The position numbers and the translations under genes were made by a program. This document shows positions 57,037 to 62,654 of a stretch of DNA of 64,000 nt, in pieces. The notes beneath the pieces are model-generated. The model did no database searches, had not been told where the DNA came from, and saw only the letters and a program-made list of their open reading frames with translations. The stretch is from a virus. Its lineage: Duplodnaviria > Heunggongvirae > Uroviricota > Caudoviricetes. Position 1 is the stretch's first letter; each line of letters opens with the position of its first letter. The stretch is from the IMG/VR virus record IMGVR_UViG_3300011115_000934, positions 33,983 through 97,982 of that record. One strand, written 5' to 3'.

Positions 57037-57179
57037 AGTCAGGTGGCGGAAATGGAAGACGCGGGATAACTGTTAAAGGGTCCTTATAAACGGAGGTGAT
57101 GCTCCGGTCTGTAGTTGATTTGAGGGTTAGATCGAATCACGCAACTAAACTCATGCAGGTTCGAGTCCTGTCCTGACTA
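57037..57179 (+). ncRNA. Oversized (143 nt) tRNA-Leu-like RNA
   Basis: AGTCAGG/CCTGACT acceptor, Leu-type D arm GCGGAAATGGAAGACGC, T arm GCAGG-TTCGAGT-CCTGT, about 70-nt two-hairpin variable region. Confidence 0.65.
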
Positions 57180-58759: not shown

Positions 58760-58843
58760 GGAGAAGATCCGGCTGGATCAGGAGCTGCTCTTGAAAAGCA
58801 GTAGCGGGTTACACCGTTGTGAGTTCGAGTCTCACCTTCTCTT
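58760..58843 (+). tRNA. tRNA-Ser(TGA)
   Basis: CTGCT-CTTGAAA-AGCAG anticodon arm, long variable arm, GTGAG-TTCGAGT-CTCAC. Confidence 0.88.
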
Positions 58844-59363: not shown

Positions 59364-59434
59364 GGGGACGACAGGCAAGGTGCCGAGCAGCTCTGTAAAA
59401 GCTCACTGGGTAGGTTCGATTCCTACCGGCCCCA
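59364..59434 (+). tRNA. tRNA-Tyr(GTA), short variable loop
   Basis: AGCT-CTGTAAA-AGCT; GTAGG-TTCGATT-CCTAC. Confidence 0.8.
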
Positions 59435-59447
59435 CTTTATTAACCTT

Positions 59448-59520: not shown

Positions 59521-59670
59521 CAAACAAGGAAACAACCCCAGAGTTGGTAAGCGCTTACCCGGACTCAAGAGAAGTAAAGTTACTAGATGGGTGCGTAACG
59601 CCTTGGACTATTATGATTTAACAATGATACGAGCTTCATACGTTCGCAAAATAACATAATAGTCAAAATT

Positions 59671-59742: not shown

Positions 59743-59750
59743 CAAAAAAT

Positions 59751-59904
59751 GTTCGTATAGATGTGCTGTGGATACGCAGGAAACACATCGAGTGGGTTAA
59801 TGATGGTAGTAGGTATACAACACTCCTTAATACTAGGATTGGAGAGAAGAGCTGATGAATACTACAAGTAATTAACAAGGTTGGTTCGATTCCAGCTACG
59901 GGCG
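59751..59904 (+). ncRNA. Oversized (154 nt) tRNA-like RNA without a canonical anticodon arm
   Basis: GTTCGTA/TACGGGC acceptor, GTTGG-TTCGATT-CCAGC T arm; internal GATGTG/CACATC, GTTAAT/ATTAAC and GTAGTA/TACTAC helices. Confidence 0.6.
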
Positions 59905-59910
59905 CAAAAT

Positions 59911-59984: not shown

Positions 59985-59990
59985 CAAAAT

Positions 59991-60073
59991 GGAAAGTAAA
60001 TCAACTAGGAGTTGAGACCGCTTGCTAAGCGTATCGTGCCTTCGGGCATGGGGTTCGATACCTCTGCTTTCCT
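59991..60073 (+). tRNA. tRNA-Ser(GCT)
   Basis: GGAAAGT/GCTTTCC; loop TTGCTAA; variable arm GTGCC-TTCG-GGCAT. Confidence 0.85.
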
Positions 60074-60287
60074 CAATGTGTTGTTCCCTTGAGAAAGGAA
60101 TAAATATTAAGAGTATTAAATTGATATACTACAACACAGATGAACCCTCAGCATCAATTAAAAACCTATTCCCCGTCCTCACAAAGCATCTAAGGAATGC
60201 AGGAGTAGAATAGTACGTTCGGGGCCTCAGCGGTAAGACGCCGTAAAATCTAAAGTACAACGATAAGTTAATGGGTTCTTATCAACT

Positions 60288-60903: not shown

Positions 60904-60977
60904 CAAAAAAATCGTCTTGGTAAAACAAGTTAAGTGACAGGGCCAAGTCACGGTAGAGTAAGCGATACTCTACAAAT

Positions 60978-61048
60978 GCGTTCCACAGACAAGGTGTCGG
61001 TACGGTCTCCAAAACTGTTACGGCTGGGTTCGATTCCTAGGGTTCGCG
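60978..61048 (+). tRNA. tRNA-Trp(CCA)
   Basis: ACGGT-CTCCAAA-ACTGT; CTGGG-TTCGATT-CCTAG; two T-T mismatches in the acceptor stem. Confidence 0.85.
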
Positions 61049-61126: not shown

Positions 61127-61828
61127 ATGAAAAAGATATGTACTAGATGTAAGGAAGAGAAACACTTAGATGAATTTAGTAATTATAAAAGCTCTAAAGA
61201 TGGTAAGCACATTTATTGTAAAGTATGTTCTAGGGATAAATCAAAAGAAAGATACTCTCAAGATGCTGAAAGAATAAAAAAGTATCGTGAGGATAATAAA
61301 GAAAAGATAAAAGAAATTAACAAAGCTTATAGTCTTAAAAATAAAGAAATACTAAATGCTCGTTCTAAGCAATGGAATTTAGATAATAAAGAAAAAAGAC
61401 AAGAGTATGTAAAGCAATGGGCTAGAGAAAATTACGAAAAGAATCATTCAAAAGTAAGAGAATATCAAAATACATACAATAGAAGTAAGTATGCCAACGA
61501 TCCTCTTTATAGACTTGCTCAACAACTTCGATCATTAATATACCAGAGTTTTAAGTATAAGTATAAAAAGCAAAAAAGAACACAAACAATACTAGGATGT
61601 ACTTATGAAGAGTTCAGAGTATACCTAGAGTCAAAATTTGAACCTTGGATGAATTGGGAAAACCAAGGATTGTACAACGGAGATTTTAATTTTGGTTGGG
61701 ACATGGATCATATAGTACCAGCTTCAAGTGCAAAAACTGAAGAGGAGATTTGTAAATTAAATCATTACACCAACTTACAACCCCTGTGTTCTAAAGTAAA
61801 TAGAGATATAAAGAAAAATAAAATATAA
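61127..61828 (+). CDS. HNH homing endonuclease with an N-terminal Zn ribbon
   Basis: CTRC...YCKVC, Lys/Glu-rich helical linker, WDMDHIVP...HYTNLQPLCSKVN; has its own CGTATATTTATA motif upstream. Confidence 0.85.
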   Translation: MKKICTRCKEEKHLDEFSNYKSSKDGKHIYCKVCSRDKSKERYSQDAERIKKYREDNKEKIKEINKAYSLKNKEILNARSKQWNLDNKEKRQEYVKQWARENYEKNHSKVREYQNTYNRSKYANDPLYRLAQQLRSLIYQSFKYKYKKQKRTQTILGCTYEEFRVYLESKFEPWMNWENQGLYNGDFNFGWDMDHIVPASSAKTEEEICKLNHYTNLQPLCSKVNRDIKKNKI

Positions 61829-62584: not shown

Positions 62585-62654
62585 GGGCAGGATGGTTATG
62601 GAGACCGGCAGGATTGCAAACTCTGCAGAGTAAGTTCGATTCTTACCTTGCCCT
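62585..62654 (+). tRNA. tRNA-Cys(GCA)
   Basis: GGGCAGG/CTTGCCC, loop TTGCAAA, U73 discriminator. Confidence 0.85.

Follow-up and report, generated by a model that had tools for sequence, protein, structure and literature searches.

What kind of RNA is encoded by a 154-nt stretch that lies in the tRNA array of a freshwater phage, begins and ends like a tRNA, and carries much larger domains where the D and anticodon arms should be? The stretch, hereafter the element, occupies positions 59751–59904 (+ strand) of the window, that is, of the whole 64,000-nt piece of DNA that was analysed. The window is part of the record of a complete virus of 161,982 bp with terminal repeats.

Genomic setting

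The window has about 35% G+C with every gene on the same strand, and the phage encodes a portal protein, a tail sheath and a ribonucleotide reductase. A tRNA array, consisting of at least 19 tRNA genes with homing endonuclease genes between them, extends from 56.8 to 63.8 kb of the window. Within it, tRNA-Asn ends 7 nt upstream of the element and tRNA-Ile begins 6 nt downstream. The gene leaders are A-rich, and only 6 of the window's 50 leaders and 10 of the genome's 169 have a Shine-Dalgarno motif. Such poor leaders recur in the phages of all subgroups of the RNA family described below (0–11%, compared with 78% in T4), a pattern that fits Bacteroidota-type hosts.

In the array the tRNA 3′ ends are followed by C-A-A or C-N-N (for example at 59744–59746 and 59986–59988) and CCA is not encoded; the first C of CCA is templated throughout. 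The array also holds the following likely tRNA or tRNA-like genes for which ARAGORN made no call.

59364–59435: likely tRNA gene of the Tyr(GUA) type with a short variable region; only 18.2 bits with the tRNA-Sec model of Rfam
59990–60075: likely class II tRNA gene of the Ser(GCU) type with a long variable arm
62585–62654: tRNA-like gene; 34.4 bits with RF00005, above threshold
58760–58842: tRNA-like gene; 37.6 bits with the tRNA-Sec model
60977–61048: tRNA-like gene; 24.9 bits with the tRNA-Sec model

Architecture of the element

The general plan keeps an acceptor stem of 7 bp and a canonical T arm, while a hairpin substitutes for the D arm and an arm of about 80 nt for the anticodon arm. The parts are listed below; counts of pairs and cells refer to the alignment of 56 distinct sequences discussed in the following sections.

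59751–59757, + strand: 5′ strand of the acceptor stem, GUUCGUA, paired with 59897–59903; 7 of 7 pairs vary on both sides and 98% of cells pair
59758–59759, + strand: tRNA-like U8-A9 connector; UA in 51 of 56 members
59760–59789, + strand: replacement of the D arm, a GAUGUG/CACAUC helix around a CUGUG-GAUA-CGCAG hairpin; differs among subgroups
59790–59795, + strand: linker GAGUGG; A41, G44 and G45 are invariant (56 of 56)
59796–59801, + strand: 5′ strand of P1, GUUAAU, paired with 59871–59876; 98% of cells pair and 3 of 6 pairs vary on both sides
59802–59805, + strand: 5′ strand of the internal loop, G52-A53-N54-G55; together with 59866–59870 it fits the bulged-G (sarcin-ricin/loop E) consensus
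59806–59815, + strand: 5′ strand of P2, GUAGUA, a mismatch and then GUA, paired with 59856–59865; 9 of 9 pairs vary on both sides and 71–81% of cells pair
59818–59821, + strand: 5′ strand of P3, CAAC, paired with 59851–59854 (GCUG); 4 of 4 pairs vary on both sides and 95% of cells pair
59823–59844, + strand: apical hairpin, made of P4 (CUCC/GGAG, 59823–59826 with 59841–59844) and the 14-nt loop UUAAUACUAGGAUU
59845–59850, + strand: A-rich 3′ bulge AGAAGA between P4 and P3; purine/A-rich and 6–13 nt long in all members
59866–59870, + strand: 3′ strand of the internal loop, A116-N117-G118-U119-A120, opposite 59802–59805
59877–59879, + strand: AAG connector, placed where a tRNA has its variable loop; of 56 members, 52 have the first A, 54 the second A and 52 the G
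59880–59896, + strand: T arm GUUGG-UUCGAUU-CCAGC; 4 of 5 stem pairs vary on both sides
59897–59904, + strand: 3′ strand of the acceptor stem, UACGGGC, and discriminator G
59905–59907, + strand: CAA trailer like that of the neighbouring tRNAs, CCA not encoded; C directly follows the discriminator in nearly all members

The acceptor GTTCGTA/TACGGGC, a canonical T arm and the G-CAA shared with the adjacent tRNAs had been pointed out in the earlier note, and all are present in the sequence; two of the 7 acceptor bp are U·G, and the T arm reads GTTGG-TTCGATT-CCAGC. The minimum free energy (MFE) fold recovered the GATGTG/CACATC, GTTAAT/ATTAAC and GTAGTA/TACTAC helices that the same note had drawn, the first of them enclosing CTGTG-GATA-CGCAG. 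The note's cap TCCT/AGGA had to be given up: the true cap helix is CUCC/GGAG, and AGGA turns into AGUU or AGUA in variants. The window copy has two irregular positions. C102 at 59852 creates an A·C mismatch in P3 where relatives keep the pair, and in the P2 extension G63 is opposite A108 (59858), a position occupied by C in relatives.

Relatives and covariance model

The MFE fold of the single sequence is not significant alone (z = −1.5), so the case for the structure rests on relatives. An exact 25-mer of the apical region was found on 18 IMG/VR contigs. Shorter or split apical sequences were used to widen the set, and a 17-mer search gave 48 matches, 44 of them the same RNA and 4 due to chance. 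A pattern independent of this core, consisting of the linker, the internal loop and the T arm only, retrieved 31 viral and 42 metagenome loci, and a further core-independent search for members of the group C or D type with other loops gave no new ones. Altogether the family comprises about 90 uncultured viral or metagenome contigs; the distinct sequences number 56 and fall into at least six chassis subgroups. The D-replacement domain is missing from group C (L003, L010, L015) and very small in group D. Of 28 loci, 27 lie inside tRNA arrays on the same strand, often 3–8 nt from the flanking tRNAs, and they share a trailer that starts with C.

The covariance model, trained on 18 sequences, scored the 45 loci then in hand at 102–156 bits and all 56 distinct members, core variants included, at 94–156 bits, while the ordinary tRNAs in about 440 kb of array DNA reached at most 35 bits. 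The model from related phages that the earlier note had called for thus separates members well from ordinary tRNAs. The window's other giant tRNA-like RNA (57037–57179) was considered as a member of the same family and rejected at 21.2 bits. Arrays of related phages contain other oversize (100–155 nt) tRNA-like matches, which scored 20–32 bits with the family model:

L011:1287–1434: oversize tRNA-like match
L013:1928–2050: oversize tRNA-like match
L032:3765–3919: oversize tRNA-like match
L036:3009–3130: oversize tRNA-like match
L009:1053–1173: oversize tRNA-like match

The arrays of related phages hold several different non-canonical tRNA-shaped RNAs, and the window's own RNA at 57037–57179 belongs among them.

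Searches of cultured phages (INPHARED, megablast and blastn) gave no relative. None of 185,579 prokaryote species genomes contains the 22-nt core, hence no prophage or cellular copy; the family is restricted to phages. ARAGORN called neither a tRNA nor a tmRNA on the element. Comparison with Rfam, named in the earlier note as a possible refutation, returned no family on the element either at gathering thresholds or at E ≤ 10, the sole match at E ≤ 10 being a chance-level YrlA fragment over the T arm. We are confident that these loci represent a real and new family of tRNA-shaped RNAs that do not decode. Standard tRNA and non-coding RNA finders overlook such genes, and the family model can be used for their annotation.

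Covariation and conservation

In the alignment of 56 sequences, 90.3% of the paired cells are indeed paired, compared with 76.1% in shuffles, and 38 of 42 pairs vary on both sides. The covariation score was 0.493 against 0.229 in shuffles, none of 500 of which reached 0.493, and it fell to 0.06–0.08 with slid partners. The alignment was fitted to the model and therefore favours it; compensatory changes can nonetheless be seen directly in the raw sequences, and all helices have covariation support. The outer helix of the D-replacement domain is the least regular in this respect, with 5 of 5 pairs varying on both sides and only 77% of cells pairing. P4 did not vary in the initial sample, which had been selected by the core, but the core-independent sample revealed covariation to UCCC/GGGA, CUAC/GUAG, CUCU/AGAG, CACU/GGUG and CCC/GGG; all of its cells pair (100%) and 4 of 4 pairs vary on both sides.

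Against this background of exchange, A41, G44, G45, U51, G52, A53, G55, A116, G118, U119, A120 and U123 are invariant in 56 of 56 sequences. Within the internal loop, variation among the 56 members is confined to the 54/117 pair. The apical loop is identical save for its last base (UUAAUACUAGGAU followed by U or C) in 33 of the 44 distinct core-independent sequences, and AUACUAG is present in 43 of them. The sole unrelated apical loop type, AAAAUGCGCAUUA, is that of L173. The chassis is variable in acceptor sequence, in the 1:72 pair and in the D-replacement domain. The discriminator column of the model alignment of 56 contains 42 A, 9 G, 3 U and 1 C, and three group C members have C when read by hand. 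An arm that stays fixed on a chassis that drifts would be the selected part of the molecule, as judged from the pattern of substitutions.

The tRNA-like side has its own constant features. The T loop is UUCGAUU in 54 of 56 members and UUCGAAU in the other 2, both of which fit the UUCRANY type. Together with U8-A9, the AAG connector and the invariant GG of the linker, the UUCGAUU T loop suggests that a tRNA-like elbow is retained, and G44-G45 may correspond to G18-G19, the residues that dock on the T loop in a tRNA.

The bulged-G motif consists of AGUA opposite GA(N), with a sheared A·G pair, a reverse-Hoogsteen U·A pair and a bulged G. This sequence pattern is invariant in 56 of 56 members, and from the AGUA/GAA consensus we take the internal loop G52-A53-N-G55/A116-N-G118-U119-A120 to be a sarcin-ricin (loop E, bulged-G) motif. 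As in the sarcin-ricin and loop E motifs of rRNAs, G52-A53 lies opposite G118-U119-A120 and is flanked by G55·A116, which gives the AGUA/GA core. The one position of the loop that varies is the position that is also variable in known sarcin-ricin examples. The motif is a local three-dimensional one and does not define a family; here it is placed in a tRNA-like RNA.

Comparison with known RNAs

A decoding tRNA was rejected as an identity for the element: RF00005 gave no match at E ≤ 10, ARAGORN made no call, the arm measures about 80 nt, and group C dispenses with the D arm. A 7-nt anticodon loop at the tRNA distance from the elbow is missing. The comparison supports a conserved tRNA mimic that is unable to decode.

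Since the 1970s, stable tRNA-like RNAs have been recognised in phage tRNA clusters, namely RNA C and RNA D of T4 and RNA1 and RNA2 of T5. T4 RNA C is described as a stable RNA of unknown function (PMC3014915, PMC9697503). Also called species 1 RNA (rnaC, 139 nt), it shares with the element the location in a phage tRNA cluster, an acceptor-like terminal stem, a CAA trailer, a canonical T arm (CCGGG-UUCGAAU-CCCGG) and large inner hairpins that replace the D and anticodon arms. It differs in having neither the sarcin-ricin-type loop nor the AUACUAG apical loop and in its host, which is E. coli and not of Bacteroidota type, and it scored 20.7 bits with the family model, the level of ordinary tRNAs, compared with 94–156 for members. 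The T5 RNAs, RNA1 (144 nt) and RNA2 (125 nt), are annotated in the T5 record as 'tRNA-like stable RNA with unknown functions'. Both lie inside the T5 tRNA region and fold with an acceptor stem, a T arm and enlarged inner domains as the element does; these inner domains differ from those of the family, and RNA2 scored 15.5 bits while RNA1 gave no match at E ≤ 1. Homology to T4 rnaC and rnaD or to T5 RNA1 and RNA2 was rejected, since nothing is shared beyond the tRNA-like part.

The element has the features of the stable RNAs of phage tRNA clusters, i.e., array location on the tRNA strand, acceptor and T arms, and no anticodon. By these features it appears to be of the same kind as T4 RNA C and T5 RNA1 and RNA2, not detectably homologous to them, and a member of a family not previously described. 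The proposal of a new tRNA-mimic non-coding RNA therefore holds for the family; the kind was already known from T4 RNA C and T5 RNA1 and RNA2.

Identity with a Y RNA was also considered, as YrlA (RF02553) had given the sole Rfam match (17.6 bits, E = 8.6, partial, over the T arm only). In the YrlA study the Ro-binding stem is reportedly made by the 5′ and 3′ ends, with the tRNA-like part lying inside, whereas the ends of the element form the acceptor stem. With this difference in topology, no Ro60/TROVE gene in the genome and a match at chance level, the identity was rejected. YrlA-type bacterial and phage Y RNAs are, like the element, non-coding RNAs with a tRNA-like module (PMC4201824).

Presence in RNA libraries

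The stretch of the element was found in metagenomes of freshwater, rivers, lakes, estuaries and sediments, and six RNA libraries also contain it. Four RNA runs were compared with the element, single-run bins without cover being uninformative. In two freshwater runs of one study, contigs span 59757–59903 and 59769–59905, approximately the predicted RNA; they exclude the tRNAs, which lie only 6–7 nt off, and sequencing adapter directly adjoins 59905/6. A run of a second study also covers the element, but some of its contigs bridge into tRNA-Ile. These contigs hint, weakly to moderately, at a discrete RNA that ends at the discriminator plus C, given that contigs cannot prove transcription, mature ends or CCA addition and that DNA carry-over is possible. 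The second possible refutation named in the earlier note, lack of a discrete transcript, did not come about, although the element-sized contigs are weak evidence for such a transcript. Summed contig depth in the RNA libraries peaked over two inter-tRNA spacers, 59522–59670 and 60079–60119, with values up to 1266 (library X15) and 290–334 (X16 and X17). These spacers may be further small RNAs of the array.

Proposed function and search for a partner

We lean, with modest confidence, towards a reading in which the tRNA part serves as a handle and the arm as a module that acts in trans on a conserved host factor. The element would be transcribed within the tRNA array of the phage. Because the acceptor/T-arm minihelix and the elbow of a tRNA are kept, the host enzymes that mature the flanking tRNAs should cut it out, RNase P acting at the 5′ end and the tRNA 3′-end machinery with the CCA-adding enzyme at the 3′ end, and the tRNA part would then be a handle for processing and stability. 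The working part would be the arm of about 80 nt, with the sarcin-ricin-type loop near its base and AUACUAG in its apical loop, which would offer in trans a binding surface, as decoy or recruiter, for a conserved component of Bacteroidota-type hosts. The partner would most plausibly be a factor of RNA metabolism or translation. That the arm is invariant across phages with almost no flanking genes in common points to a conserved partner, and since all subgroups are Shine-Dalgarno-poor, this partner may be specific to Bacteroidota-type hosts. The two weakened pairs of the window copy, A·C in P3 and G·A in the P2 extension, count against this explanation, as do the contigs that bridge into tRNA-Ile and the negative results on linked and candidate partner genes given next.

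In the flanks of 96 loci no protein gene recurs consistently; the best ORF cluster was found at only 13 of the 96. Genes for ribosomal protein S21, the CCA-adding enzyme, SmpB and Ro60/TROVE are absent from the phage of the window. Look-alikes of rRNA were noticed for the 16S 3′ tail (AACACCUCCUU), for helix 18 and its 530 loop (ACUCC...UAAUAC...GGAG) and for the 23S sarcin-ricin loop. Taken as a whole, the arm resembles Flavobacterium rRNA no more than expected by chance. We rejected the idea that the RNA mimics host rRNA or is complementary to it, as the core compared with a Flavobacterium rrn operon (L110), sense or antisense, gave 9–10 against a null of 9.6 ± 1. A Shine-Dalgarno/anti-Shine-Dalgarno reading of CUCC...AGGA...GGAG was likewise rejected; covariation changes P4 to CUAC/GUAG, among other pairs, and AGGA is lost in variants. 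Targets complementary to the loop in the phage genome amount to chance 8–10-mers only. The 11-mer AATACTAGGAT at 61588–61598, inside an endonuclease VII-like ORF (61127–61828), repeats the apical loop motif, probably by chance, with about 0.08 such matches expected in this genome.

Alternative explanations

A gene located among tRNAs with acceptor and T arms kept could be a decaying or an intron-bearing tRNA gene. We find this hardly credible since compensatory changes and invariant motifs foreign to tRNAs run through 56 distinct sequences and group C lacks a D arm; moreover, the insert is far below the size of a group I intron, and its removal leaves no anticodon loop. A reduced tmRNA-like rescue RNA, which would be charged with an amino acid, enter stalled ribosomes and present a very short frame, draws on features that the element has in common with the tRNA-like domain and helix 2 of tmRNA: the acceptor/T minihelix, the lack of an anticodon, a reduced D region with conserved G residues, and a long helix that leaves the tRNA-like domain. 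Candidate frames are GCA-UAY-NNN-AWG-UAR in the 3′ strand of P2 and UAC-UAG in the loop, and GCA and UAA or UAG do occupy fixed places in many members. The P2 frame, however, lies inside a covarying helix, is shifted by indels in L020 and L021 and is interrupted in L031 (GCA-UAG). Position 3:70 is C-G in 36, U-A in 9 and U·G in 8 of 56 members, and G3·U70 can be drawn only in L003; with a discriminator and a 1:72 pair that vary as well, no single synthetase identity is kept. The earlier note's statement that the element is not tmRNA is borne out in that G3:U70, a conserved tag frame and pseudoknots are all lacking and ARAGORN and the Rfam tmRNA models are negative. The phage of L004, a group B member, has a full tmRNA besides (L004:1363–1749, with a 26-residue tag ending in AVAA), that of the window has no SmpB gene, and we judge a rescue function very unlikely. 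A purely cis-acting, tRNA-shaped spacer, which would influence how the polycistronic tRNA precursor is processed or how stable it is, without any role as a free RNA, is suggested by the distance of 3–8 nt to tRNAs in many arrays. The flanking tRNAs have processing signals of their own, such a spacer does not need invariant internal and apical loops across subgroups that differ in chassis and neighbours, and RNA libraries contain element-sized contigs, all of which make this reading quite improbable. Somewhat less doubtful, though still unlikely, is a decoy that soaks up a host anti-phage toxin directed against tRNAs (an anticodon nuclease, an acceptor-end modifying toxin or an endoribonuclease) and so spares the real tRNAs. 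The conserved top half and elbow of a tRNA would suit such a decoy, and so would the UAA-UAC-UAG of the loop, which is similar to short sites that some endoribonuclease toxins recognise. A look-alike of the anticodon loop at the correct distance from the elbow is missing, the arm resembles no part of a tRNA, and we know of no defence system that selects such a structure.

The self-complementary centre of the apical loop raises a different possibility, in which two molecules kiss through CUAG, ACUAGU or, in one subgroup, AUGCGCAU and form a rod with a tRNA-like head at each end. This is compatible with the handle-and-module reading and the two could coexist; on its own evidence it is improbable, if slightly less so than the toxin decoy. 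A palindromic centre is found in all loop types, as CUAG in the main one, ACUAGU in L171, L172 and L178 and the perfect 10-mer AUACUAGUAU in L175, and even the unrelated loop of L173 contains a perfect 10-nt palindrome, AAUGCGCAUU; against composition-preserving shuffles the latter two reach P = 0.02 (L175) and P = 0.004 (L173). The self-complementarity of the main loop, however, is no better than that of shuffles (P = 0.1–0.35), its self-duplex amounts to only −4.6 kcal/mol, and the same pairs can form intramolecularly (AAU/AUU closing a CUAG or GCGC loop), in which case covariation cannot separate the two. The idea is also post hoc, having been formed after the data were seen. The dimerisation loop of HIV-1 is a precedent for kissing loops. 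The phage-associated ROOL, GOLLD and OLE RNAs are described as kissing-loop homo-oligomers (PMC12286853). If the element did dimerise, its heads would lie about 150–200 Å apart and could cross-link or sequester two tRNA-binding sites, be it of two ribosomes or of a dimeric tRNA enzyme or toxin. It would represent an RNA-only quaternary structure built on a tRNA chassis, and a larger RNA-only assembly would be possible.

Implications

Covariation and fixed positions in 56 sequences show which nucleotides of the family matter: the chassis drifts, while the sarcin-ricin-type loop and the 7-nt apical motif are fixed. The family is more tractable in this respect than the T4 and T5 cases, and it gives concrete mutants and baits for a partner search. 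Under the reading of a tRNA handle with a trans-acting arm, the findings suggest that large Bacteroidota phages use the tRNA shape as a natural scaffold that delivers a functional RNA module.
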